A DNA stretch of 38,405 nt from Candidatus Woesearchaeota archaeon (GTDB lineage: Archaea > Nanobdellota > Nanobdellia > Pacearchaeales > GW2011-AR1), in contig CAZEOE010000002.1 of the NCBI GenBank assembly GCA_964513665.1, positions 1 to 38,405 on the forward strand. Reading direction: 5' to 3'. Within the stretch, counting starts at the first letter, position 1. Every line of letters begins with the position of its first letter. The position numbers and the translations under genes were made by a program. Under the pieces are notes generated by a model. That model was not told where the DNA came from. It saw only the letters and a program-made list of their open reading frames with translations, and made no database searches. This document shows, piece by piece, positions 14,238-35,576 of the stretch.

Positions 14238-14595
14238 CTGGGTTTATTCCTATCTCAAGCGTTTTACCGCCGCTGGTCACGTCAACGTTATCACCCCATT
14301 CGTTACGGCGGCGGCGTTTCAGCCATTCCAGCGCGGCTTTCCAGTCACCCTTTGCGGCGGCGGATTGGATGACACGTACCATGTTTACTTCACATTGCGC
14401 GTTTGCCGTCTCCAGAGCCTCGGAAAACTCCCTGTAAATACCGCTCTTTGCTTCTCTGCCCTTCTTCATCCACTCGTTGAAGGTGTCATAATGGATACCA
14501 CCAGAACGGGCTGCGGATTGGTACGATGCGCCGTGAAGTACGGCATTGGATACCAATTCGATGATTTCAGGGGTAATTTTGCTAGGGCGTGCCAT
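14200..14595 (-). CDS. terS: terminase small subunit (HTH)
   Basis: MARPSKITPEIIELVSNAVLHGASYQSAARSGGIHYDTFNEWMKKG is an HTH N-terminus typical of small terminases. It overlaps the terL start. ATG 14595 is preferred to the TTG at 14631. Confidence 0.6.
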   Translation of the reverse strand: MARPSKITPEIIELVSNAVLHGASYQSAARSGGIHYDTFNEWMKKGREAKSGIYREFSEALETANAQCEVNMVRVIQSAAAKGDWKAALEWLKRRRRNEWGDNVDVTSGGKTLEIGINPVDYRSGLTKTEE

Positions 14596-15808
14596 TTTCC
14601 ACCAGTTCGGGCTGTATTCCTGTGGCGTCAAACCATCTTTGCAGGATGACAGCCCCGTAATTGGGACTTATCTCCATTGCGTAACAGCGGCGGTTTAGGT
14701 TGTGGGCGGCAATGATGGTTGTGCCACTGCCACAAAACCAATCCGCCACAATGTCACCCGATAACGAAAAAGTCTCTACTGCCATTGTCAACAGTCCAAC
14801 GGGCTTCTGTGTAGCGTGTTCATAGTCAGCCGCCGCGTCTTTATTCACGCCCCACACAGACCCGATGCGCTTTCCTTTTATAGTTTCGCCACGTCCATAA
14901 GCCAGAATTATCTCATAGTCCGTCAACAGACTATGAGATAAGTCGCCCATTCCACCTCCGCCCTTGTCCCATATAATCATATTGTCTAGAGTTCCCAATC
15001 CAGAGCAAATTTCAATCCACTCTCTAACCACTTTCCAAGACGTACACACTAAAGCCCATCCATCAGAAAATAATTTCATGTTAGGTATAAAATCTATAAA
15101 CTTATCGTCATTCTCTAGTACTTCAAACTTCTTACTTTTCGTTCTCATATTACTTTGGTATTCGTAACCATAAGGCGGGTCACTAAAGTTTAGTTGCGCC
15201 CTCTCCCCGCCCATCAAACGTTCCACGTTCTCCCGCACGGTACAGTCACCGATTAGCAAGCGATGCTCCCCAAGCCTCCAAAGTTGACCTGTGCTAGTCT
15301 GCCATTTCTCCGCCAACTCTGCGGCGCGGTCTATCTGTGGTTCGGCGTCCACTTTCTCGGCGTTCTCACTATTCAGTAACTCTTTCAGGTTGGTAACATC
15401 ATTTGACCAACCGGACAATGTTTCTTTGTCCATCCCCCACTCTCGCAAATCCGCCGCGCTCCACGATGACAGCGCATCCCATGACCATGAACCTGTGGCG
15501 GTGTGCAGGAGTACGGATACCTTTTTGCGCTCATCGTCTGTAAGCATACGGTTAGATTGCAGAGCAGTAACTTCATACGACGGGTCTTTTATCGTCATCC
15601 ACGCCGATACTCTCTGATGACCGTCATATAAGTGGACGCGACTATCGTCTGTGAATGGGGATACTGCCAGCGTTTGGATTTGTCCTAATTCCCGCTCGGA
15701 CTTGATAAGTCTTTGCGCTTGTGCCTTTGTGGACATGCGCGGGTTGTCTTGCCATGCAATAATCTGTCCCAATCTTATCTTGACAGGCGTCCACACTAAA
15801 TCACTCAT
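14582..15808 (-). CDS. ParB-like nuclease domain / DNA (N6-Ade or N4-Cyt) methyltransferase fusion
   Basis: LYDGHQR ParB-type motif, NFSDPPYGY catalytic motif and FCGSGTT AdoMet motif. ATG 15808 has GGGAG upstream and is preferred to the tool start at 15922. Confidence 0.85.
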   Translation of the reverse strand: MSDLVWTPVKIRLGQIIAWQDNPRMSTKAQAQRLIKSERELGQIQTLAVSPFTDDSRVHLYDGHQRVSAWMTIKDPSYEVTALQSNRMLTDDERKKVSVLLHTATGSWSWDALSSWSAADLREWGMDKETLSGWSNDVTNLKELLNSENAEKVDAEPQIDRAAELAEKWQTSTGQLWRLGEHRLLIGDCTVRENVERLMGGERAQLNFSDPPYGYEYQSNMRTKSKKFEVLENDDKFIDFIPNMKLFSDGWALVCTSWKVVREWIEICSGLGTLDNMIIWDKGGGGMGDLSHSLLTDYEIILAYGRGETIKGKRIGSVWGVNKDAAADYEHATQKPVGLLTMAVETFSLSGDIVADWFCGSGTTIIAAHNLNRRCYAMEISPNYGAVILQRWFDATGIQPELVENGTP

Positions 15809-16019
15809 ACCCGCGCTCCCAAAATTCGGGGTCTTCAAAATCGTGCGCCGTTTTGATGGGACTGCCCTCATCCCGTTCGGCGTACACTTTGGCGGCAAAT
15901 CCGTCACTGAGACAGACGCCAAATAGACCGTCCGCGTCTGCCTGCCAAAAGCGGCAGAAGTTGCATTGTTTAGGTGTGGGGATTATTCCCGCGTAGGTTT
16001 CCGGTATCATTGGGGGCAT
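15801..16019 (-). CDS. hypothetical small protein
   Basis: 72-aa ORF that overlaps the methyltransferase start by 8 nt. Confidence 0.4.
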   Translation of the reverse strand: MPPMIPETYAGIIPTPKQCNFCRFWQADADGLFGVCLSDGFAAKVYAERDEGSPIKTAHDFEDPEFWERGYE

Positions 16020-16080
16020 TGTATCATAAAATTCAACGACTGAATTTTGCTTTTTCGGGGAATAACTGTCTGCCTTTCTA

Positions 16081-16094
16081 CCGATACGTATCGG
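16081..16094. promoter_or_regulatory. palindromic motif CCGATACGTATCGG, copy 1
   Basis: Perfect 14-bp palindrome in the intergenic gap 16020-16094. The identical 14-mer recurs at 22699 and 29137, with one-mismatch variants at 27355 and 31008. Confidence 0.6.
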
Positions 16095-16988
16095 TTACAA
16101 CTCCATCACCATTGCAGGGTGGATGCGAATATCGCCGGACGCGGATACCTCAAAGAATGACAGACCAATATCATTTCGCTGAAATGGCGCGACGCGATAG
16201 GCGTACCGCGTTTTGACCTGCCACGACGGTAAAATCATGCCGTGTAATGTATGCCAGTCCTGTACATAGGTTTGATAGATTGGTTTGTGGACGTGGGCAG
16301 AAACGATCATGTCGGGTACTTTCGCGCCCCTTTTGATTCTGTTCCAATACAGGCGTTTTAACCAGTTGCGATACCCATCCCCCTCCGTCGCTCCGTCTCC
16401 GGCGTTTGCGCCGTGATGCGTAAACCAGAGTTCCCGCCCGTTGACCGTTATACAAAGTTCGTGGTAGGCGTAATAATTCTTCCCGTTTTGGGTCGTGGCA
16501 ATCTCCGCGCCGAGTTCGTCCGCTATGAAGTTTTCAATCGTCAGTGTGTGCGATTCTGTACCTTCCACATAGTACAGTTTGTCCCCTGCTCGTTTGGAAA
16601 ATCCCACGTCTTTCAACATGCCACGCATCAACTCAAGATGGATTTCGGCATGGTCTTCGATGGACGGCGACATGACCTGAGTTATGTTGTGATGCAGGTT
16701 TTCGGTTGCGTCTCCGTCATTGACGATTATCAACCGTTTGCCTTTTCTAGCGCCGGCGATTGCTTTTATGCAGGTCTGCCAATGGTCATGTATTTTGGTT
16801 TGTAGATCTGACGGTACTGCTTTTATTTCGGATTTCGGAAGATACATTGCTTTGTCTGGAAACAGGGCGCGGGATGAACCGCTGTGCATGTCGCTTAGGG
16901 CGACGATAAGAGTATCTTTATCCAAGAGATTTTCCCTTCTTTTGTTGGGTCTTTGGTTTCGCCATTGCGTTGATCTTCTGTATCGCAA
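16095..16988 (-). CDS. calcineurin-like metallophosphoesterase
   Basis: Motifs SDMHSGS, NDGDATEN, GTESH, HHGAN and SAHVH occur in the canonical order. An alternative TTG start at 16925 would remove the 71-nt overlap with the upstream ORF. Confidence 0.75.
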   Translation of the reverse strand: MRYRRSTQWRNQRPNKRRENLLDKDTLIVALSDMHSGSSRALFPDKAMYLPKSEIKAVPSDLQTKIHDHWQTCIKAIAGARKGKRLIIVNDGDATENLHHNITQVMSPSIEDHAEIHLELMRGMLKDVGFSKRAGDKLYYVEGTESHTLTIENFIADELGAEIATTQNGKNYYAYHELCITVNGRELWFTHHGANAGDGATEGDGYRNWLKRLYWNRIKRGAKVPDMIVSAHVHKPIYQTYVQDWHTLHGMILPSWQVKTRYAYRVAPFQRNDIGLSFFEVSASGDIRIHPAMVMEL

Positions 16989-17793: not shown

Positions 17794-17820
17794 TTTTGTT
17801 CTCCTTGTAACTTCTTATAC

Positions 17821-17953
17821 CACAAATTACGGTTTGCGTTAGCGGCGTGTGCCGCAATGAGCACAAAGGCTCCACACAGAACCCTGATAAAACTCATGCT
17901 TGCCGTCAGACGATCCTGGGCACACGTCCGACTGCACGCATTTGTTAGCCTTC
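17821..17953 (-). repeat. attC-like imperfect palindrome of the minus-strand solo cassette
   Basis: Minus strand reads GAAGGCTAAC-aaa-TGCGT-gc-AGtCGG-ac-GTGTGCC...GGCACAC-g-CCGCT-a-ACGC-aaacc-GTAATTTG. R'' is the reverse complement of GTTAGCCTTC at 18452-18443. Confidence 0.75.
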
Positions 17954-18438
17954 GCCACGACTTCACGAGACACAGGCGGGTTGAGAACCTTTATCCATCG
18001 CTGTTTAGTGTTTTCTGGTTGGTCATCTCTGCGACCAGTCCTACTATGCCAACCGTGACCACCGCCAGCAGATTTGTTTTCACAAACCCAACCGCTTGCC
18101 AGCAAAGAAATTCCCGTTTCTGTATCCAGAATATAAGTTTGTATCTTTTCGTAACCTAGTTCTTTTGCTACTCTGGCAGATGCCGCATATAAAATGCTAC
18201 AAGCGTTTTTAGTACCATCACTGACAAGTCGTACAACTTCAACCGTAGTGCGCCAATTTACCAAACGAGCTACAGGACGCCCTACAATAGCCGCGCCCAC
18301 CAACTCGTGTTTCTTGGTATCGTAAACACCAATGGAAAAACGATGTCCTTGCGCTTCTTTGTGGTGACGATGCCACCGCTTTACAAGGGTGTTTGCTTCA
18401 GATAATTCTACGGGAACAATGATTAGGCTCATGGGCAA
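17839..18438 (-). CDS. GNAT-fold (XF1762-like) protein with Cys-rich tail; cassette-borne
   Basis: The pattern VELSEANTLVKRWHRHHKEAQGHRFSIGVYD recalls the phage-associated GNAT-like family. The C-terminal C...CAHC is encoded inside the variable part of the attC-like site. Confidence 0.55.
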   Translation of the reverse strand: MPMSLIIVPVELSEANTLVKRWHRHHKEAQGHRFSIGVYDTKKHELVGAAIVGRPVARLVNWRTTVEVVRLVSDGTKNACSILYAASARVAKELGYEKIQTYILDTETGISLLASGWVCENKSAGGGHGWHSRTGRRDDQPENTKQRWIKVLNPPVSREVVAKANKCVQSDVCPGSSDGKHEFYQGSVWSLCAHCGTRR

Positions 18439-18442
18439 GTAA

Positions 18443-18521
18443 GAAGGCTAACGGTTTGCGTATCAAACACTACGCCGACCGGCGCTTTGCAAGCATAAAA
18501 CATTACGCTTTGCAGCGGCGG
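18443..18521 (-). repeat. decayed attC-like site forming the upstream junction of the solo cassette
   Basis: Minus strand reads CCGCCGCTGC-aaa-GCGT...gat-ACGC-aaacc-GTTAGCCTTC. The 3' arm and R' are intact. The 5' arm has TGC instead of AAC and the inner pairing is lost. Confidence 0.5.
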
Positions 18522-18647
18522 GGCGATGTAAACGTCTCAGCATCAAAAAACCAATGACCGGAACGCCAACCACGAGTAATCCAAAGCAGGGCAATCACAC
18601 ACGCATTGTAAACGAGTTGCAAACCGCGAGCATTGACGAACAAAAGA

Positions 18648-18680
18648 TTATCTTTCATGCTTATCTTTCATGCTTATCTT
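18648..18680. repeat. 13-bp tandem duplication TTATCTTTCATGC x2.5
   Basis: Identical units at 18648-18660 and 18661-18673, plus a partial third unit that contains the stop codon of 18674-18988. Confidence 0.8.
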
Positions 18681-22379: not shown

Positions 22380-22975
22380 ACTCCTATAATCTCGCCCGCT
22401 TCGTCGGCAACGATCATACCCTCAAGCGTCTGCAATAACTCCAAAAGATTTTCGGCGGCGGGGCGTACCTGTTTGGCGGCGAAGTCCTGCGCTTGCGAAC
22501 TGCCTACCGCCATTGGGGTATTGATAAGGTCGCGGTCAAGATGTTTGATGTAACGCCTGACAGTCTCGACGTATTCCGGTTCGATGATAAGTTGCTGGTC
22601 AACGCGGATTTTCGCGTCCAACTTCCGCACAGACAACCGCTCCCAAATCGCCTCTATCAAGTATTCCGTCCCCTGCCCTACCGTCAGAATGCCCGCTACC
22701 GATACGTATCGGTAAATCAGTGCAAGATGGGAGTACGTGAGTTCGCGCCTGATATCGCACGCTAAATCTTCGTCATTCTCCAGCAGGGCGCGGTATTGTT
22801 TTCCCGCCTGTACCATCTTGCCGACGGTGTCGGTGTCCAGTCCTGAGCGGTTGGCAAATTCGGCGGTTGAGCAGTTATTGGCGACCAACGTATAACAGGC
22901 GTCTATCCTGCTTGCTTCGCCATTGCGCCATTGGATAATTGCATCTTCAATCGGGTCGGTGAATGGGATGGTCAT
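22376..22975 (-). CDS. HTH-containing hypothetical protein
   Basis: 199 aa with an HTH-like segment, STAEFANRSGLDTDTVGKMVQAG. Contains palindrome copy 2. Confidence 0.55.
   Translation of the reverse strand: MTIPFTDPIEDAIIQWRNGEASRIDACYTLVANNCSTAEFANRSGLDTDTVGKMVQAGKQYRALLENDEDLACDIRRELTYSHLALIYRYVSVAGILTVGQGTEYLIEAIWERLSVRKLDAKIRVDQQLIIEPEYVETVRRYIKHLDRDLINTPMAVGSSQAQDFAAKQVRPAAENLLELLQTLEGMIVADEAGEIIGV
22697..22714. promoter_or_regulatory. palindromic motif, copy 2 (TACCGATACGTATCGGTA)
   Basis: Perfect 18-bp palindrome. It lies inside the CDS 22376-22975 and encodes YRYVSV. Confidence 0.55.
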
Positions 22976-23728: not shown

Positions 23729-23742
23729 AGCCTGCGGGAGCG

Positions 23743-23795
23743 GGCATAAAGGTTTGCGTTACTGGCGGGCTTTCTTCTTCGGACGCCCGCCCAAC
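23743..23795 (-). repeat. relic attC-like 3' half-site
   Basis: Minus strand reads GTTGGGCGGGC-gtccgaagaagaaa-GCCCGCC-AG-TAACGCAAACC-TTTATGCC. Same 3' arm as the array (compare CAGGTAACGCAAACCGTTATGCC at 32933), but with GTT changed to TTT. Confidence 0.4.
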
Positions 23796-24016
23796 TTGCC
23801 ATTTTCGCGAGACGAAGTTGCTTTTGCTTCGCTGGTATGAGAGCCGATTATTTTGGCAGCAATCATACGATTTAGGCTTTCGTATTCTTCCATTTGATTG
23901 CTATCGTAGGCGACAAGCGCCGCCCTTTGCAATTGATCTATTCGGCATTCATGACCACGCGGCTCTTGGAGAGCATCATATTCGGAGCCACAAGTAGAGC
24001 AATAGCGCATGTCCAT
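23759..24016 (-). CDS. small zinc-ribbon-like protein with basic tail
   Basis: Start set at MDMRYCSTCGSEY (24016), adjacent to the upstream stop. CSTC...HEC motif. The stop TAA lies inside the TAACGCAAACC motif. Confidence 0.5.
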   Translation of the reverse strand: MDMRYCSTCGSEYDALQEPRGHECRIDQLQRAALVAYDSNQMEEYESLNRMIAAKIIGSHTSEAKATSSRENGKLGGRPKKKARQ

Positions 24017-27352: not shown

Positions 27353-27370
27353 TACCGCTACGTATCGGTA
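27353..27370. promoter_or_regulatory. palindromic motif, copy 3 (TACCGCTACGTATCGGTA)
   Basis: One-mismatch variant. Its 17-mer ACCGCTACGTATCGGTA is identical to copy 5. It overlaps the stop of 27358-27567, upstream of 27323. Confidence 0.55.
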
Positions 27371-27567
27371 GCGACGCTCAGACTGTCATTGTTGAGTACC
27401 TGCTGAACCGCCCAAATGCCGCTCTCCAGCCCAAACCGTACCATTGCAAAGTTTCTTTTGGGTAACGCCTTTTTGAGTTTCCGCATCGCCCACAATTCAG
27501 AGGCATAAGCGGATCGGAGCGTTCGGGAGGTGATGTAGGGGTGTGTCATGATAATATCTTTCGACAT
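27358..27567 (-). CDS. hypothetical small protein
   Basis: 69-aa ORF with no clear SD. Confidence 0.4.
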   Translation of the reverse strand: MSKDIIMTHPYITSRTLRSAYASELWAMRKLKKALPKRNFAMVRFGLESGIWAVQQVLNNDSLSVATDT

Positions 27568-28201: not shown

Positions 28202-28804
28202 CTATATACCCATGTATTTATACAATATCTTTTTAGCCGCAGCCCAAGCCGCATCCCTAGCCGCAGCCCGAGCCGCAACCCAAGCCGCAGCCCAAGCTGC
28301 ATCCCCAGCCGCAGCCCCAGCCGCAGCCCAAGCCGCATCCCTAGCCGCAGCCCAAGCCGCATCCCTAGCCGCAGCCAACTCTTCTTTTGTCGCTTTCCCA
28401 TGTGCGAATCGTCGTGCGGTATCTATCGCGTTTTGAGGTCGTTTGTCGTCTGGATAATGTTTGTTCCAGATTGGCATAACAGTTTCGGCAATATCACACG
28501 CGGCGAGGCGTGCATTTTTATCATTCCATTTATTGATTTTCTTGACGAATCGCATCTGTTGAGAAACGTCTTTTTCGTCACCCTCAAAAATATCACCCCT
28601 TAGTTCCACCTCGAACATTTGAGCGTTCATCCATTCAATAACGTGTTCCTTTTTGCAGGCGTGATACCCTGATACACAGAGTTCAATGGCGTCAACTTTC
28701 GGCAACCATTTTCCAGGCTTGCCATTTTTGGGTAGATATTCTGTAAAATCAAATCCAGAATACTCACCCTTGTTGTCCTCATCCAAAAACTTATAGCGTT
28801 TCAT
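28202..28804 (-). CDS. Ala/Trp tetrapeptide-repeat protein
   Basis: 200 aa. Globular N-terminal ~140 aa followed by AAARDAAWAAARDAAWAAAGAAAGDAAWAAAWVAARAAARDAAWAAA, which is encoded by the 12-nt tandem repeat. Confidence 0.65.
   Translation of the reverse strand: MKRYKFLDEDNKGEYSGFDFTEYLPKNGKPGKWLPKVDAIELCVSGYHACKKEHVIEWMNAQMFEVELRGDIFEGDEKDVSQQMRFVKKINKWNDKNARLAACDIAETVMPIWNKHYPDDKRPQNAIDTARRFAHGKATKEELAAARDAAWAAARDAAWAAAGAAAGDAAWAAAWVAARAAARDAAWAAAKKILYKYMGI
28236..28376. repeat. 12-nt tandem repeat, about 11.75 units (GCCGCAGCCCAA / GCCGCATCCCTA types)
   Basis: Read directly from the sequence: contiguous 12-nt units with 1-3 substitutions each, in frame within CDS 28202-28804. Confidence 0.85.
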
Positions 28805-29135: not shown

Positions 29136-29151
29136 ACCGATACGTATCGGT
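29136..29151. promoter_or_regulatory. palindromic motif, copy 4 (ACCGATACGTATCGGT)
   Basis: Perfect 16-bp palindrome between the tRNA and the next minus-strand ORF. Confidence 0.6.
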
Positions 29152-29171
29152 GGTTGCCTGTTCAAAAACAG

Positions 29172-31006: not shown

Positions 31007-31023
31007 ACCGCTACGTATCGGTA
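31007..31023. promoter_or_regulatory. palindromic motif, copy 5 (ACCGCTACGTATCGGTA)
   Basis: Located 40 nt upstream of the erf start. Identical 17-mer to copy 3. Confidence 0.55.
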
Positions 31024-31063
31024 AACCAATTTGATACCGCGCTGAGGCGCGGGAAAGGAAAAA

Positions 31064-31654
31064 ATGAACAAGTCAGAAAACATCACCGAACTCGCACAGG
31101 CACTTGCCAAAACGCAGGCAGAAATGCCACACGTCCCAATGAATGCCGTCAATCCGTTTTTGAAAAACAAATTCGCGGACCTGGGCGCAGTCATCACCAC
31201 CATCAAACCGATCATTGCAAGGCACGGTCTGTCCTACTCGCAACTCCCCGTCTCCGACGGCAACCGAGTCGGCATCACTACCGTCGTCATGCACGCATCC
31301 GGTCAATGGATTGAGTCAACCGTCATGCTGGAACTGGCAGACGAGAAGGGCAAATCCGCCGCGCAAGTTGCAGGAAGCGTCATTACCTACCTGCGCCGCT
31401 ACTCGCTGTCGTCTGCGTTTGGTCTGTATGCCGACGAAGACACGGACGGAAATCCCGCCGCGAAACAGGCAGTAAAAGCGTCGGCAAAACAGACCGTGCG
31501 CGACCGCTATTCGGAACTGCTGAAAGAGGCGGTAGAACTCGGCGCGGTGAAAGAGTCCGATTGGGGACTCAACGACAAAATGACCGACGCGGAAATCACC
31601 GAACTCGGAAAGCAACTCCGCGCCATAGTTGAAAAAGCAAAGGTAGGTAAATAA
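31064..31654 (+). CDS. erf: ERF-family single-strand annealing protein
   Basis: NPFLKNKFADLGAV ... ITYLRRYSLSSAFGLYADEDTDG matches the ERF superfamily pattern. Confidence 0.85.
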   Translation: MNKSENITELAQALAKTQAEMPHVPMNAVNPFLKNKFADLGAVITTIKPIIARHGLSYSQLPVSDGNRVGITTVVMHASGQWIESTVMLELADEKGKSAAQVAGSVITYLRRYSLSSAFGLYADEDTDGNPAAKQAVKASAKQTVRDRYSELLKEAVELGAVKESDWGLNDKMTDAEITELGKQLRAIVEKAKVGK

Positions 31655-32049
31655 TGGGATGGTACTCGCACGATGAAACGCTGGTTGTCGGCAAGGTTGG
31701 CAAGGACGCGGAAATGAAATATCTGAATAACGGCAACGCCGTGACCAACTTCTCAATCGCTGTTGATCGCTCCTACAAGGACAGAGACGGCGAACTCCAC
31801 AAGCGGACTATCTGGTATCGCATCACCTGTTACGGCAAACTCGCTGAGGTTGTGAAGGATGTCAAGAAGGGCGATACCATTTTGGCAGGCGGTAATCTCG
31901 AAGCAGACTGGCAGACTGGTTCTCCGCGTATCTGGACCAAGCAGGACGGCTCCGCCGGTTCATCCTTTGAACTCAACGCGCAGACGATCAAGTTCCTTAG
32001 CAAGCGCGAGCAGACGGAAACCCCTGTCGAAGACGACGCGCCGTTCTAA
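31654..32049 (+). CDS. ssb: single-stranded DNA-binding protein
   Basis: OB-fold pattern (VVGKVGKDAEMKYLNNGNAVTNFSIAV...TIWYRITCYGKLAE) and an acidic C-terminal tip, EDDAPF. Confidence 0.9.
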   Translation: MGWYSHDETLVVGKVGKDAEMKYLNNGNAVTNFSIAVDRSYKDRDGELHKRTIWYRITCYGKLAEVVKDVKKGDTILAGGNLEADWQTGSPRIWTKQDGSAGSSFELNAQTIKFLSKREQTETPVEDDAPF

Positions 32050-32082: not shown

Positions 32083-32141
32083 CAACCAAAAATGGCGTGC
32101 TGGTCGGTATGCCCTTGCAGGATAAACAATAGTTGGGCGGC
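32081..32141 (+). repeat. array-proximal junction site (short, degenerate attC/attI-like)
   Basis: GCCAAC-caaaaatg-GCGTGCTGG...GCAGGATAAACAATA-GTTGGGCGGC. The 3' half parallels GCAGGTAACGCAAACC-GTT. Its GTTGGGCGGC (32132-41) is the partner of R'' of cassette A. Confidence 0.45.
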
Positions 32142-32168
32142 TCTCGCTCAACAGCGTAAGGAGCAAAA

Positions 32169-32354
32169 ATGAAAGATTACGAATTGCCACAATGCGAAAA
32201 TTGTAAATGGTCATTAGGAATAGAGCAGGTTAGAAAGTCTCTGGTAATTGGCAATAAATTGTTTTGTGACAAGTGCCGCCCAACAAAGCGTGCACCCGAC
32301 GTGAAGCCACGTCGCGCCGTGAAAGCAAAAACCCGCAAGGCTTCACGCGGGTAA
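32169..32354 (+). CDS. cassette A: 61-aa zinc-ribbon mini-protein
   Basis: AAGGAG SD. CENC...CDKC. The stop TAA lies in the 3' arm GGGTAACGC of its attC-like site. Confidence 0.6.
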   Translation: MKDYELPQCENCKWSLGIEQVRKSLVIGNKLFCDKCRPTKRAPDVKPRRAVKAKTRKASRG

Positions 32355-32372
32355 CGCAAACCGTTCGGCGGC
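32275..32372 (+). repeat. attC-like site 1
   Basis: GCCGCCCAAC-aaa-GCGT-gc-ACCCG-ac-GTGAAGCC...GGCTTCAC-g-CGGGT-a-ACGC-aaacc-GTTCGGCGGC. Confidence 0.8.
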
Positions 32373-32392
32373 TCGTCCGCAAAGGAGAAATC

Positions 32393-32626
32393 ATGTTGAT
32401 AAAGGCTAAGGCGCGTTTAGGTTTTCGCAATATCGTTGTTGATGATTGCCCGTATTGCCATCGCACGCACTACCACAATCCGCCCATTGCGGAAGGTGTC
32501 CGCATGGCTGATTGCTTCAAGGGTGAATACCTGCTCGATTTTGAAGCCGCCGAACATTGTTTGCACACCGACCCGCCTTCGGCTCTTGAAGTCGCGGCGG
32601 AATCTCAAGAAACGGCGGGCGGGTGA
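32393..32626 (+). CDS. cassette B: 77-aa Cys/His mini-protein
   Basis: AAAGGAGA then 4 nt then ATG 32393. CPYCHRTHYH. The stop TGA lies in the 3' arm CGGGTGAAAC. Confidence 0.55.
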   Translation: MLIKAKARLGFRNIVVDDCPYCHRTHYHNPPIAEGVRMADCFKGEYLLDFEAAEHCLHTDPPSALEVAAESQETAGG

Positions 32627-32643
32627 AACTCGCCGTTAGGTGC
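32546..32643 (+). repeat. attC-like site 2
   Basis: GCCGCCGAAC-att-GTTT-gc-ACaCCG-ac-CCGCC...GGCGG-g-CGGGT-g-AAAC-tcgcc-GTTAGGTGC. GTTT/AAAC covaries with GCGT/ACGC. Confidence 0.75.
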
Positions 32644-32647
32644 TAAT

Positions 32648-32848
32648 ATGCTACAAATTTTGTCTTGTGGTTGTGAAGTGAAACTAAAGCGCGATAAGAT
32701 GCGCTGCTCAAAATGTGGTGAGCTATTTTGCCCGAAACATATCTATCAACGTGTTGATGAAAGTAATAGGGCTATCACTGTAAATGCTCCGTTGCTGTGT
32801 GCGGTATGCGCCAATCCAGAGAACGCACCTAACACAGCGTCCACCTGA
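32648..32848 (+). CDS. cassette C: 66-aa multi-CxxC mini-protein
   Basis: CGC, CSKC, CPKH and CAVC motifs. The stop lies inside the ACCTGAC arm. Confidence 0.5.
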   Translation: MLQILSCGCEVKLKRDKMRCSKCGELFCPKHIYQRVDESNRAITVNAPLLCAVCANPENAPNTAST

Positions 32849-32958
32849 CGTGCGCTCCGCTCGCCGCGTTCCGTGTACCTGTGGTATGGATGATGGCTTG
32901 CATGAATGGGATTGCGCCATAAGCCGCGCACGCAGGTAACGCAAACCGTTATGCCGCC
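32825..32958 (+). repeat. attC-like site 3
   Basis: GCACCTAAC-aca-GCGT-cc-ACCTG-ac-GTGCGC...GCGCAC-g-CAGGT-a-ACGC-aaacc-GTTATGCCGCC. Confidence 0.8.
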
Positions 32959-32988
32959 CACGGGCTGACAGTGGGAGAAAGGTCTACG

Positions 32989-33246
32989 ATGAACGTTTGG
33001 GATATTGAGTTACAGAAACACTATGCAGATATGGAAGAGGATAATTGGGACGCCGATCTCACCAGCTATTACCGTGTGGTTGCGCCTGATTATGAGAGCG
33101 CCTTAGCCACGGCAGAGTCGCTCGCTTTGTCCGAAACCTTCGAGGATGACGAATCCGACAAAGTTGTGCCAGTTGATCGGGTGCGCCTGGTTTCGATCAA
33201 GAAGGGCATTTCCGTTGACGCTATCGCAACCGTAAAGGCGGCATAA
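32989..33246 (+). CDS. cassette D: 85-aa acidic protein
   Basis: GGGAGA SD, ATG 32989. No Cys residues. The stop TAA lies within R'' GGCGGCATAAC. Confidence 0.55.
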   Translation: MNVWDIELQKHYADMEEDNWDADLTSYYRVVAPDYESALATAESLALSETFEDDESDKVVPVDRVRLVSIKKGISVDAIATVKAA

Positions 33247-33335
33247 CCCTGGCTTGCACGTTGACGGCGGCGGGCGTGGCAAAAACCGGACAGTCACAAA
33301 CGTCGCCGCAAGTGAAGCCAAACCCGTTGGGCGGC
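33237..33335 (+). repeat. attC-like site 4
   Basis: GGCGGCATAAC-cct-GGCTT-gc-ACgTTG-ac-GGCGGCG...CGTCGCC-g-CAAGT-g-AAGCC-aaaccc-GTTGGGCGGC. Confidence 0.75.
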
Positions 33336-33355
33336 TTTGCCCAAAAGGAAATAAC

Positions 33356-33679
33356 ATGAGCAACGGAAGATATTGTGATAATTGTGAAACTCACTTGAAT
33401 GATGAAGATTACGTGTCCTATGGTTCATGGTCTTACACTTGCCATGATTGCGGTTTTTCATATCGTCATGGTTCTGCTGGCGCAGGTGAGCAGGTTAAAA
33501 GATTCAACAGCCGCCCAACAAAGCGTGCAGCGGACAAAAGCGGGATTTTGCAAGAGTCGCCAAAGCCAGATAATATTATTTTGACGGTGAGACTTCGGAG
33601 CCAGTGTCCAGCCCGCTTTTGTCCGCTAAAGCCAGCCGTTCGGCGGCTTCGTGGCTGTCGAAAAAGTGAGAAGAAATGA
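33356..33679 (+). CDS. cassette E: 107-aa zinc-ribbon protein
   Basis: AAAAGGAA SD, ATG 33356. CDNC...CHDC. Reads through its own attC-like site and ends in an ATGA overlap with the next ORF. Confidence 0.5.
   Translation: MSNGRYCDNCETHLNDEDYVSYGSWSYTCHDCGFSYRHGSAGAGEQVKRFNSRPTKRAADKSGILQESPKPDNIILTVRLRSQCPARFCPLKPAVRRLRGCRKSEKK
33510..33647 (+). repeat. attC-like site 5
   Basis: GCCGCCCAAC-aaa-GCGT-gc-AGCGGACAAAAGCGGG...CCCGCTTTTGTCCGCT-a-AAGC-cagcc-GTTCGGCGGC, with a 16-bp perfect inner helix. Confidence 0.8.
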
Positions 33680-34038
33680 ACCTTTTACAATCAAGTAATT
33701 CGGTAAACGTAAAGGAAGATAATCCAGGTTTATTTGAGTTGTCGTTTTCTCAGCAAGCCTTTGCGGTTGGCGATATTGTTACTCGTTCTGGCAATGATGA
33801 GCAAGTGATAACTAGCATAGATTTTGATTGGGGAACGCTCGATGTATTGTGCATAAAGCCTGCGTACTGGATAGGCTTTGGCGAAAGCGAAGGCAATCTA
33901 ATAAGGCGGTATGAGTTTGTCAGAAGTGCCGCCGAACACAGCGTGTACCTGACCGCCTTCGGCGCGGGTATGCAGTTGCGCCTTGCTAAGTTTGTAAATT
34001 TTATTCGAGAGTTACTTGCCAAATACGGCGGCAGGTAA
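33676..34038 (+). CDS. cassette F: 120-aa hypothetical protein
   Basis: ATGA-coupled start. The stop TAA lies in the 3' arm CAGGTAACGC. Confidence 0.55.
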   Translation: MNLLQSSNSVNVKEDNPGLFELSFSQQAFAVGDIVTRSGNDEQVITSIDFDWGTLDVLCIKPAYWIGFGESEGNLIRRYEFVRSAAEHSVYLTAFGAGMQLRLAKFVNFIRELLAKYGGR

Positions 34039-34056
34039 CGCAAACCGTTAGCCCGC
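33928..34056 (+). repeat. attC-like site 6
   Basis: GCCGCCGAAC-aca-GCGT-gt-ACCTG-ac-CGCC...GGCG-g-CAGGT-a-ACGC-aaacc-GTTAGCCCGC. Confidence 0.8.
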
Positions 34057-34086
34057 ACTTGGCGCAATGTGCAGAAAGGCAAAATA

Positions 34087-34359
34087 ATGTCATTCAAATC
34101 AGATTTTGGTCGCGATCCAATTCCAGGCGAAGATTATTCATTAGATGATGCAATGTCTCAGGATGAATACGAATACCTTACAGGAACGGGCGCGTATTTG
34201 CCACGCAATCACGGTAAAAGTCAGCATTACGAGATTGTAAAAAAAGTCTTTGCTAAATTATTTAGCGGGCTAACAAAGCGTGCACCTGACGTGTGCAACG
34301 CGTCGGATTGCAAAGAGGCTGCCGTCAATGCGGGTTTATGTGAGAAGCATTCGTTCTAA
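34087..34359 (+). CDS. cassette G: 90-aa protein with C-terminal Cys/His knuckle
   Basis: AGAAAGG SD, ATG 34087. CNASDC...CEKH is encoded inside the variable part of site 7. Confidence 0.55.
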   Translation: MSFKSDFGRDPIPGEDYSLDDAMSQDEYEYLTGTGAYLPRNHGKSQHYEIVKKVFAKLFSGLTKRAPDVCNASDCKEAAVNAGLCEKHSF

Positions 34360-34395
34360 TCCTGCACACGCAGGTAACGCAAGCCGTTAGAAGGC
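34265..34395 (+). repeat. attC-like site 7
   Basis: GCGGGCTAAC-aaa-GCGT-gc-ACCTG-ac-GTGTGC...GCACAC-g-CAGGT-a-ACGC-aagcc-GTTAGAAGGC. Confidence 0.8.
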
Positions 34396-34399
34396 TAAT

Positions 34400-34603
34400 A
34401 TGCAAACGTCAATAATACTAACATGCTCGTCTTGCCACGAAAAACTAAATTTCTACATGAAGGTAATTGATAGCAATGTAGTTTTGCGCGTGTATAAGTG
34501 CGAAAATTGTAAGAAAACTGGTATTTGTTCTGTTTGCGGCGAAGGTGTTGTGTACAAAAAAGGTGTGTGCCAAAGTTGTTACGAATATGAGGCGCAGAAA
34601 TGA
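34400..34603 (+). CDS. cassette H/I, ORF 1: 67-aa double zinc-ribbon protein
   Basis: CSSC...CENC...CSVC...CQSC. Confidence 0.55.
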   Translation: MQTSIILTCSSCHEKLNFYMKVIDSNVVLRVYKCENCKKTGICSVCGEGVVYKKGVCQSCYEYEAQK

Positions 34604-34863
34604 AACATTATTTTATGACCTTGCCCAATGTTTTCTTTCCTGAAAACAGGTTTTGTGCCAAGTGTGGCGAATACTTCACACACCCGAATCACCTACATGG
34701 TAGAGATTGCCAATGCGAAACTTGCCAGCAAGAACGCCTTCTAACACAGCGTGCAGTTGACGTGGGGCAGGCTGGGCAATTTTTTGGACGGTCGGTTATG
34801 CCCCACGCAACTAACGCGAGCCGTTCGGCGGCAAAGGAGATAACATGGCTCGATTTTCAATAA
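34600..34863 (+). CDS. cassette H/I, ORF 2: 87-aa Cys/His protein
   Basis: ATGA overlap with ORF 1. CAKCG...H..H...CQCETC. Reads through site 8 and overlaps the next start. Confidence 0.5.
   Translation: MKHYFMTLPNVFFPENRFCAKCGEYFTHPNHLHGRDCQCETCQQERLLTQRAVDVGQAGQFFGRSVMPHATNASRSAAKEITWLDFQ
34736..34832 (+). repeat. attC-like site 8
   Basis: GCCTTCTAAC-aca-GCGT-gc-AGTTG-ac-GTGGGGC...GCCCCAC-g-CAACT-a-ACGC-gagcc-GTTCGGCGGC. Confidence 0.8.
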
Positions 34864-35159
34864 GTGGATACGATAACGATAGCAAGTGTAAAATATGCGG
34901 TTCTCACGCCAGCGAAATACACCGCGAAGGTTGTGAGCTTGGCGCGGTGTATGCCGAAAGAAAAGAGATGCGCTTAGTGATTGAGCAGTTTCTAAAATTG
35001 CTCGGTGTCGAAACTATCACCTCGGCGTTTTCAAAGATTGCCGCCGAACAAAACGCGCACCTGACGGGGCTACACTGTCCCGCCTGCATGTGCCGTAATG
35101 AAGAAATTGTAACTTGCGCCCGCTGTGGTACTTTGAAAGCCGCCCCGCAGGTAGCGTAA
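34845..35159 (+). CDS. cassette J: 104-aa zinc-ribbon protein
   Basis: AAAGGAGA SD. CKICG near the N-terminus. CPAC...CARC is encoded in the variable part of site 9. The stop TAA lies in the 3' arm GTAGCGTAAGCC. Confidence 0.55.
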   Translation: MARFSISGYDNDSKCKICGSHASEIHREGCELGAVYAERKEMRLVIEQFLKLLGVETITSAFSKIAAEQNAHLTGLHCPACMCRNEEIVTCARCGTLKAAPQVA

Positions 35160-35172
35160 GCCGTTCGGCGGC
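35040..35172 (+). repeat. attC-like site 9
   Basis: GCCGCCGAAC-aaa-ACGC-gc-ACCTG-ac-GGGGC...GCCCC-g-CAGGT-a-GCGT-aagcc-GTTCGGCGGC. ACGC/GCGT is the swapped version of GCGT/ACGC. Confidence 0.8.
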
Positions 35173-35183
35173 AAAGGAGAAAA

Positions 35184-35558
35184 ATGAACATTCGGCAATT
35201 TAGCGAAAAAATAATCAATGGTCCTGGCGGCTTGCACGCTTACGAGTATCACGAAATGGCTGAGCCAGTTGGTGATCGTGATGTGGCGGTGGCTGTCTGG
35301 GTAATCAAGTGTCTGTCTAATCCGAAGTGTGAAGGCTCGGAAGTGGCTATCCAAGCAATCTTGGAAAGGCGTAATAAACTTGCCGCCGAACAATACATGC
35401 ACCCGACTGGCGGTACGTGCCCCGTGTGCGAGAATGATCGCCTAAATGGGTATCCGTGTCCTAATCTAGACGTTGCTCCTCAGTGGCGTTGCAAGTGTGG
35501 CTGGGCAAATTTTGAAAATGTAAGACTGTGTTCTGCGTGTGGTACGCAACGCAGGTAA
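35184..35558 (+). CDS. cassette K: 124-aa protein with CPVC and a RanBP2-like zinc finger
   Basis: AAAGGAGA SD. WRCKCGWANFENVRLCSAC fits W-x-C-x-C-x3-N-x6-C-x2-C. The stop TAA lies in CAGGTAACGC. Confidence 0.55.
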   Translation: MNIRQFSEKIINGPGGLHAYEYHEMAEPVGDRDVAVAVWVIKCLSNPKCEGSEVAIQAILERRNKLAAEQYMHPTGGTCPVCENDRLNGYPCPNLDVAPQWRCKCGWANFENVRLCSACGTQRR

Positions 35559-35576
35559 CGCAAACCGTTACGACCC
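35382..35576 (+). repeat. attC-like site 10 (terminal, long, partly degenerate 5' arm)
   Basis: GCCGCCGAAC-aat-ACAT-gc-ACCCG-ac...g-CAGGT-a-ACGC-aaacc-GTTACGACCC. R'' and the 3' arm are intact, but the inner 5' arm no longer pairs perfectly. Confidence 0.6.

Follow-up and report, generated by a model that had tools for sequence, protein, structure and literature searches.

Gene content and boundaries of the cassette

The 38,405-nt stretch of DNA analysed here (the window) comprises positions 1 to 38,405 of contig CAZEOE010000002.1 of assembly GCA_964513665.1, deposited as Candidatus Woesearchaeota archaeon, and is treated as a phage sequence. On its minus strand, flanked by genes for an SH3-domain protein and a small membrane protein, lies what is very probably an integron gene cassette of 622 nt (18451-17830), consisting of a 5' tail (TTAGCCTTC), a gene for a Mom-like protein, and an attC recombination site up to the crossover G. 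An earlier note on this DNA, made from the sequence alone, had proposed a solo cassette at this position, and all of the sequences that it quoted are present where it placed them. The cassette points the same way as the minus-strand operon around it, and its open reading frame (ORF) the same way as its own attC site; the orientation of the element follows that of the gene, as had been noted. Transcription is presumably by read-through from the operon. A promoter scan of the filled and empty sites called no promoter, and terminator-like hairpins occurred at chance frequency. A candidate promoter overlapping the insertion target (TTGATA-19-TGGTATAAG) was dropped because the scan called none.

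The repeat that flanks the unit, ACGCAAACCGT, is exact at 18461-18451 and at 17839-17829 (minus strand). With at most one mismatch it matches eight times in the window, where 1.26 matches are expected, and none of 100 shuffles reached eight; of the remaining copies, a weak one is at 23.7 kb and the others are in a plus-strand array at 32.3-35.6 kb. At the left junction (18452-18443, minus strand), the crossover G at 18452 belongs to the backbone and is followed by the cassette tail TTAGCCTTC, the exact reverse complement of the R'' box of the cassette. The exact 10-nt reverse complement that the earlier note had seen at both cassette ends is real, with GTTAGCCTTC at 18452-18443 and GAAGGCTAAC at 17953-17944. 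By estimate about 0.8 inverted repeats of 10 nt are expected within 1.2 kb, so such a repeat is not rare per se; its position is non-random, flush with L'-spacer-G on one side and with AAC-spacer-L'' on the other. The 5' tail pairs with its own R'' at 10 of 10 positions when GTT/AAC is included, and at 7 of 7 in the 7-nt tail beyond GTT/AAC, but matches the downstream R' in place at only 2 of 7. A circular intermediate characteristically leaves a tail complementary to its own R'', and the junction of the circular cassette is predicted to read ...CACGCCGCTAACGCAAACCG|TTAGCCTTCTTACTTGCCC. To the right of the unit, the backbone (17829-17815, minus strand; TAATTTGTGGTATAA) leads into the DNA upstream of the gene for the 99-aa membrane protein (17793-17494) and is identical in three related phage loci (L157, L160 and L142).

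The attC site of the cassette

The attC site (17953-17830, minus strand) is composed of R'' GAAGGCTAAC (17953-17944), a spacer AAAT, L'' GCGT.GCA.GtCGG.AC.GTGTGCC, an interior, L' GGCACACG.CCGC.TA.ACGC (17853-17836), a spacer AAACC and the crossover G at 17830. A covariance model (R1) was built from 57 bacterial attC sites and no phage sequence; the sites are mostly from arrays of Anaerolineales/Chloroflexota, some of which stand beside true integron integrases. The whole window was scanned with R1 on both strands with filters off; calibration was shortened, so the E-values are rough. This minus-strand scan, which the earlier note had called for, matched the cassette attC at 17819-17953 (31.4 bits, E 7e-7), separated from noise by a large gap in score. 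All 18 modelled pairs are formed in the alignment, with two single-T insertions on the R''-L'' arm, and the inner arms pair (CGTGTGCC/GGCACACG at 17919-17926/17846-17853), in agreement with the proposal that the arms are covarying stems. R1 also matched ten sites of the plus-strand array (32275-35172, E 3e-18 to 0.003); a model made from bacterial sites alone thus recognizes the cassette attC and the array sites as the same type, as had been claimed.

Two further candidates scored lower. The region 18443-18519 (minus strand) gave 11.4 bits (E 0.11 window-wide), with matches to CAAAGCGT ... ACGCAAACCGTT only and a 43-nt interior. A third site at 23741-23812 (minus strand; ACGCAAACCTT) was rejected (7 bits, E 1.6). 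One site passes at 17.8-18.5 kb, whereas a cluster of attC sites lacking integrases (CALIN) has at least two attC within 4 kb and no integrase.

The R'' of the cassette is ...CTAAC and its upstream junction is G|TT. The downstream R' triplet is GTA, contributed by the backbone, rather than GTT, as the earlier note had read it. In the copy of the cassette at L155 (one of the fetched loci, numbered here with the prefix L), which has a GTT R' with six bases that pair with R'', the bottom strand adopts the canonical attC hairpin, bulged on the R''-L'' arm.

The same cassette in other phage contigs

Many relatives of the Mom-like protein were found at 82-96% identity, with similarity that stops at about residue 164, where R'' begins. 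In other phage contigs the cassette has 86-92% nucleotide identity to that of the window; in every case the homology begins at 18461-18452, and its other end is at 17933-17943 (17829 in L155). There are nine distinct left neighbours, every one joined at G|TTAGCCTTCT. Cassette-precise boundaries had been predicted, and the nine different neighbours, all joined at G|TTAGCCTTC, bear this out. Four of these neighbours are the attC 3' ends of other cassettes (L125, L129, L135, L136). Another four are attI-like and do not resemble attC, namely ...TAAAACATAG| (L141, L155), ...CGCAATAG| (L161) and ...TTTCTAG| (L139), and the ninth is the flank of the window itself, to which the attI-like neighbour ...AAAACATAG| has no similarity.

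L155:128-751 contains a copy of the entire unit (90.4% identical over the 624 nt of window 18452-17829) in which the attC interior is the same and both T bulges recur; L157 and L160 lack the unit. The L155 array, which has at least six attC sites, opens with this cassette, and G|TTAGCCCGC comes next. The Mom-like gene is linked to at least four attC interiors (window breakpoints 17933-17943; L125:2819-2954, L129:5480-5545, L135:842-977, L137:500-632), and the attC interior of the window to three different genes, being 91% identical to L003 and 87% to L004. This implies that attC interiors have been exchanged at the R''/L'' boundary, besides recombination at G|TT; the conserved boxes have probably served for homologous exchange independently of the latter.

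Empty sites and a platform with two entry points

Close relatives of the phage were reached through 90%-identity cluster members of two flanking proteins. A blastn search of INPHARED phages with the 14.5-22 kb region gave one irrelevant 249-nt match and no relative, and IMG/VR searches with the two flanking proteins gave no match.

For relatives without the segment, an empty site reading ...ACGCAAACCG|TAATTTGTGG had been predicted. It was found, with one base different, as ...GATACACAAACCG|TAATTTGTGG in L157 and in L159/L160, with ...ACACAAACCG|TAATTTGTGG around the crossover in both L157 and L160. L157 has both entry points empty, reading from the stop of the SH3 gene ...GGTCAG|TAATGTTTTATG...GTAGTGTTTGATACACAAACCG|TAATTTGTGGTATAA; its 297-aa neighbour protein is 98% and its SH3 protein 99% identical to those of the window. 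L159/L160, from one sample, carry three cassettes (attC matches of 58.7, 22.9 and 31.1 bits), the last of which ends ...GCATAACCG|TAATGTTTTATG and is followed by a 54-nt spacer, one base different from that of the window, and then by ...ACACAAACCG|TAATTTGTGGTATAAGAAGTTACAAGGAG; the right flank TAATTTGTGGTATAAGAAGTTACAAGGAG of L160 is identical to that of the window. The L142 group (97.6% nucleotide identity in the terminase region) has four other small genes with attC matches at the locus, and both ...ACGCAAACCG|TAATTTATACC and ...ACATAAACCG|TAATTTGTGG. Two or three attC matches stand at this same locus in L142 and L159/L160.

The two entry points, G|TAATG and G|TAATTTG, are crossover points separated by a 54-nt backbone spacer (18505-18452, minus strand; TAATGTTTTATG...GTAGTGTTTGATACGCAAACCG) whose 3' end mimics an attC L'-spacer-G. 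The spacer has a single difference from L160:375-428 (ACGC in the window, ACAC in L160) and also aligns with L157, within a 56-nt BLAST match (window 18506-18451) of 77% identity. At the first entry point (G18506|T18505) there is a window-specific segment of 167 nt (18507-18673, minus strand) that ends ...CCGCTGCAAAGCG|TAATG; it is absent from L157, and L160 has a true attC (31.1 bits) ending at the same junction. The segment may be a decayed cassette. It had no homologue among the fetched loci, and 18507-18612, taken as a decayed attC ending at the first entry point, had no R1 match and no homologue among the same loci. A tandem repeat (GCATGAAAGATAA x2) and a possible hydrophobic ORF of 51 aa (MKDNLLF...RRCKA*) were noted within it.

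The earlier note had described the upstream region 18443-18521 as a decayed full site. The region is weaker than that: it scores 11.4 bits, is mostly phage backbone and is a composite: the right 54 nt, backbone 18505-18452 is kept in the empty relatives, and the left part, CCGCCGCTGCAAAGC, lies to the left of the first crossover, in the window-specific segment. The note's solo insertion at a second locus also has to be revised: the site is empty in some related phages and occupied in others by different cassettes or by a small array. Judged from the aligned sequences, the locus is a recurrent second cassette platform with two entry points, filled differently among relatives.

attC sites of bacterial integrons and of the main array

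A scan for the motif GGTAACGCAARCCGTT in one genome per bacterial species found at least 120 loci, mostly in metagenome-assembled genomes of Anaerolineales and other Chloroflexota and many of them arrays with copies spaced 0.7-1 kb, and 108 sites of equal layout were extracted from the bacterial loci. In the bacterial arrays, 44 of 56 consecutive pairs have an R' tail that is reverse complementary to the R'' that follows, and compensatory changes affect 9 of the 15 predicted stem pairs (for example, CACCTG/CAGGT versus CAGCGG/CCGCT). Three bacterial loci encode TIGR02249 integron integrases (NCBIfam; 443-449 bits, cutoff 265), whose genes are divergent from the first cassette with an attI (...GTATAAAAAGTAG|TTGGGCTGC) in between. 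The bacterial distribution, the tail rule, the covariation of the stems and the adjoining integrases together identify the repeat family, at the level of sequence comparison, as the attC type of Chloroflexota chromosomal integrons; that the phylum Chloroflexi carries integrons was already known (PMC4889954). When the proteins of the cassette and its flanks were compared with about 120 fetched host loci, there was no homologue and no direct host-to-phage cassette match.

The main array of the window (32091-35576, plus strand) is located just downstream of an erf gene (31064-31654; phrog_2324, E 1e-44) and an SSB-like gene that follows it (31654-32049, read from its translation). It has an attI-like start, ...GGATAAACAATAG|TTGGGCGGC (crossover 32132|32133), ten attC matches (32275-35172) and one weak match (35456-35576). 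Its repeats have the layout 7 nt-AAC / AAA or ACA / GCGTGCACCTGAC ... CAGGTAACGC / AAACC / GTT-7 nt. The tail after GTT agrees, as the reverse complement, with the tail before AAC of the next site at 7, 6, 7, 7, 7, 7, 7 and 7 of 7 positions, and with the tail of its own site at merely 2-7 of 7; such a pattern is what would be left by units that are cleaved and ligated between G and TT by way of a circular form. The array at 32-35.6 kb is a CALIN by the definition given above. The attI-like motif at its start (window 32091-32142, plus strand) is ...ATAAA(A/C)A(A/T/G)TAG|TT. The motif was also noted at L004:5727-5778 (96% over 52 nt), L141:2540-2572 and L155:100-137, and is common to the attI beside intI in an Anaerolineales genome (L057:4530-4565).

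Mechanism of cassette movement and alternatives

The interpretation that we favour, with high confidence, is that 18451-17830 (minus strand) is a bona fide integron cassette that moved as a precise unit by recombination between attC and a backbone site, probably with the IntI of the host acting in trans. The cassette would enter as a unit by recombination of its folded attC with a short site of the phage backbone; the bottom strand of attC would recombine with the double-stranded backbone site, and the crossover would fall between G and T of ...CAAACCG|TAATTTG. The recombinase, we infer, would be the IntI of a bacterial host, supplied during infection, because the phage is without an integron integrase of its own. 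It would be equally consistent for the relatives to have lost the cassette by the reverse reaction; the event is cassette-precise whether it was a gain here or a loss in the relatives. The proposal that the same recombination chemistry operated at a second locus thus gains support from the same attC type, the same tail rule and the empty alleles, with IntI as the probable agent.

Several observations weigh against this interpretation. Neither the window nor 221 kb of related phage loci yielded an integron integrase or any other tyrosine recombinase; in tblastn searches of the window, an IntI1 query had a best E of 0.2, and the IntI of L057 (3385-4365) had no match at E<=1. R1 found no attC in the empty relative, and the target in the window scores 11.4 bits. 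The core triplet of the target, GTA, fits neither GTT nor the GWT of IntI1 genomic sites. With GTA in R', the R box of the cassette pairs poorly in place, and the cassette may now be immobile, or its re-excision inefficient. The left junction has ACGC in the window and ACAC in both empty relatives, a difference that may be a single-nucleotide polymorphism, a conversion tract or the mark of a different ancestor; the repeat at this junction is ACGCAAACCG in the window (18452-18461) and ACACAAACCG in the relatives (L157:4044-4053, L160:418-427). The target may be a worn-down terminal attC or just as well a fortuitous secondary site. It shares 10 of 11 bases with the 3' end of attC, and microhomology-based recombination might account for this single event.

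The strongest alternative, which we regard as improbable, is homologous or microhomology exchange, for instance by the Erf annealing protein and SSB of the phage, using the CAAACCGT shared by a donor array and the backbone, and no integrase. Erf and the SSB-like protein are encoded directly upstream of the main array, the ACGC/ACAC difference would fit a crossover or conversion tract as the shared bases would fit annealing, and the swapping of attC interiors at the R''/L'' boundary resembles homologous exchange. However, the same G|TT joint is made to the attI-like ...AAAACATAG|, ...CGCAATAG| and ...TTTCTAG|, which have no homology to the 3' end of attC; 8-11 shared nucleotides are very few for exchange by annealing at both ends; and the preserved complementarity of tail and R'' is explained only by a circular, site-specifically recombined intermediate.

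Still less probable is an ancestral origin, in which illegitimate recombination brought a fragment of a host chromosomal array into the phage on one occasion and the relatives then lost it or diverged. The filled and empty alleles give no direction to the event, the backbone ends in an attC-like L'-spacer-G that could be a remnant of an older terminal attC, and relatives carry other cassettes at the locus, all of which this origin could accommodate. A loss that restores exactly ...CAAACCG|TAATTTG, however, is itself a cassette-precise, site-specific excision by the same chemistry, and the absence of any homologue of the cassette or its flanks from the roughly 120 host loci also speaks against capture from a host. 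That the repeats are merely regulatory palindromes or terminators of the phage, or a shared coding module for a C-terminal zinc ribbon, is scarcely credible: several ORFs do continue across the sites as far as the TAA in GGTAACGC, and the interiors encode Cys/His-rich tails (such as ...SDGKHEFYQGSVWSLCAHCGTRR*), but different frames cross the conserved boxes (TGA in ACCTGAC against a PTKRAPD reading of the same DNA), the site family forms arrays beside integron integrases in bacteria, and filled and empty alleles break exactly at G|T.

The Mom-like cargo

The gene of the cassette (17839-18432, minus strand) encodes 197 aa, starting at an ATG (18432) or a TTG (18438) and stopping at a TAA (17841-17839) within the L' box. 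Its conserved core (aa 5-146, approximately 17995-18420) spans the whole of the NCBIfam XF1762-family profile NF045478 (162.9 bits, cutoff 50). The protein also matches phrog_1384, 'Mom-like DNA modification protein' (E 3e-31), and Pfam Mom with a score of 24.7 (E 2e-5), below the gathering cutoff of 27.1. An AlphaFold model made with 34 homologues (pLDDT 90.3) has as its best structural match in the PDB the Mom protein of phage Mu (8bv8_B, E 9e-8, TM 0.74), followed by many GNAT acetyltransferases. Sequence searches of the PDB, with the single sequence and with a profile, gave only a spurious match to a designed protein and no usable Mom alignment.

The GNAT fold proposed in the earlier note is therefore upheld by the model. 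The likening to classic acetyltransferase cargo of integrons is not, as the gene is specifically of the Mom-like DNA-modification type and not a resistance acetyltransferase. The predicted structure identifies the cargo as a Mom-like protein of the GNAT fold, with Mom as its nearest relative. Mom belongs to the GNAT superfamily; with Gly-tRNA it hypermodifies adenine, and so shields phage DNA from restriction (PMC13219725; PMC7261163). Its catalytic residues are R111 and S124. By analogy with the Mu protein, the cargo most likely hypermodifies adenine in the phage DNA and so protects it from host restriction. With Mu Mom (PDB 8bv8) it has in common the GNAT fold, the best structural match, matches to PHROG and Pfam Mom families and carriage by a phage. 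It differs in having approximately 15% sequence identity and a short core of 146 aa (XF1762 family) with an attC-encoded tail.

The last 50 aa or so of the cargo are read-through of attC, and differ between contexts. Several other cassette ORFs were seen to read through attC and to stop at the TAA in GGTAACGC, with interiors that encode Cys/His-rich, zinc-ribbon-like tails; one such tail, SDGKHEFYQGSVW.(I/L)CAHCGTRR*, is conserved across three phages. The read-through loci are at 17839-17990 (minus strand) and 32263-32354, 33916-34038 and 35370-35558 (plus strand) of the window, and at L003:401-513 and L004:5981-6093. A large DNA methyltransferase with a ParB-like N-terminal part (14582-15922, minus strand; phrog_498, E 6e-60) is encoded 2 kb from the Mom cassette; the phage thus carries at least two DNA-modification functions.

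Comparison with known integron systems

The cassette resembles those of sedentary chromosomal integrons (PMC4889954) in its R''-L''...L'-R' imperfect palindrome with AAC in R'' and, in the L155 copy, GTT in R', its G|TT crossover, the complementarity of the tail to its own R'', the extra unpaired bases on the R''-L'' arm, its one promoterless, co-oriented ORF, and an attC type that is homogeneous per host clade. It differs in that it is carried by a phage without intI, lies outside the array and on the opposite strand, has a backbone GTA downstream, and has an ORF that runs through attC.

Integrase-less attC cassettes in phages, some with DNA-modification (methyltransferase) cargo, are known from the few phage CALINs found by Qi et al. 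2023 (PMC9892861), who surveyed 10,705 NCBI phage genomes, recombined attC sites with IntI1, and proposed that such cargo gives phages anti-restriction genes. Sections 2.1 and 3.4 of that paper have no filled and empty alleles and no cassette common to several phages. Relative to what those parts describe, a site family matching Chloroflexota hosts, attI-like array starts and a second entry site in the backbone are found here only.

IntI1 inserts single cassettes into non-att targets with a GWT consensus (Loot et al., bioRxiv 10.1101/2022.09.11.507474), and aadB in RSF1010 and pRAY are off-site cassette cases cited in the same work. As in such attG or secondary-site insertions, a complete cassette here occupies a non-att, double-stranded target beside genes able to drive its expression. 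The differences are the GTA triplet, the mimicry of an attC L'-spacer by the 10 bases left of the crossover, and the repeated use of the site in a phage lineage.

Thus, integron cassettes, integrase-less phage arrays, methyltransferase cargo and off-site insertion have already been published. To our knowledge, attI-like array starts shared with hosts, a second platform with a GTAAT core and cassettes common to unrelated phages have not been described; searches of the literature on phage arrays with anti-defence cargo or on Chloroflexota attC types found nothing closer.

A possible cassette pool of Chloroflexota phages

The locus provides population-level evidence for the movement of cassettes in phage genomes, in the form of nine left neighbours and of filled and empty alleles in sister phages. 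Its non-canonical backbone target, used repeatedly, and its cargo of the anti-restriction type are further points of interest. A broader proposal, to which we give slightly less than even credence, is that phages of Anaerolineales and other Chloroflexota maintain integrase-less platforms (an attI-like site after erf-ssb, and a GTAAT-core site ahead of a small membrane-protein gene) and share a phage-specific pool of cassettes through the chromosomal IntI of their hosts during infection.

Bacterial integron cassettes have recently been shown to hold many anti-phage defence systems. If the proposal is true, the integron system that stocks these defences would also be used by phages to shuffle their counter-defences. 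The cargo seen in these arrays includes the Mom-like enzyme and, by precomputed Pfam marks only, an Acb2/Tad1-like protein and predicted DNA methyltransferases. Should the wider pattern hold, phages would be exchanging accessory genes by an overlooked route, the integron integrases of their hosts. The attC type could also mark the hosts of uncultured phages, and here it points to Anaerolineales.

Among the related arrays, the precomputed Pfam marks are Acb2_Tad1_hairpin (an anti-CBASS/Thoeris sponge family), MTS methyltransferase and N6_N4 DNA methyltransferase, in cassettes at L125:171-380, L125:1104-2123 and L135:986-1801. L003 (541-1080) has in addition an ORF that is a candidate methyltransferase by its appearance. 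This content suggests that the related phage arrays are enriched in counter-defence genes.

Other repeats in the phage genome

Two families of repeats apart from the attC sites were noted in the window. A core that is a perfect 16-nt palindrome, ACCG(A/C)TACGTATCGGT, occurs at five scattered places (16080-16101, 22698-22719, 27354-27375, 29136-29157 and 31007-31028), and may be an operator or another protein-binding site. A 12-nt unit (AGCCGCAGCCCA, with variants) is repeated in tandem approximately 14 times at 28211-28400, inside a 200-aa ORF (28202-28804, minus strand), where it would encode a short Gly/Ala-rich peptide repeat.

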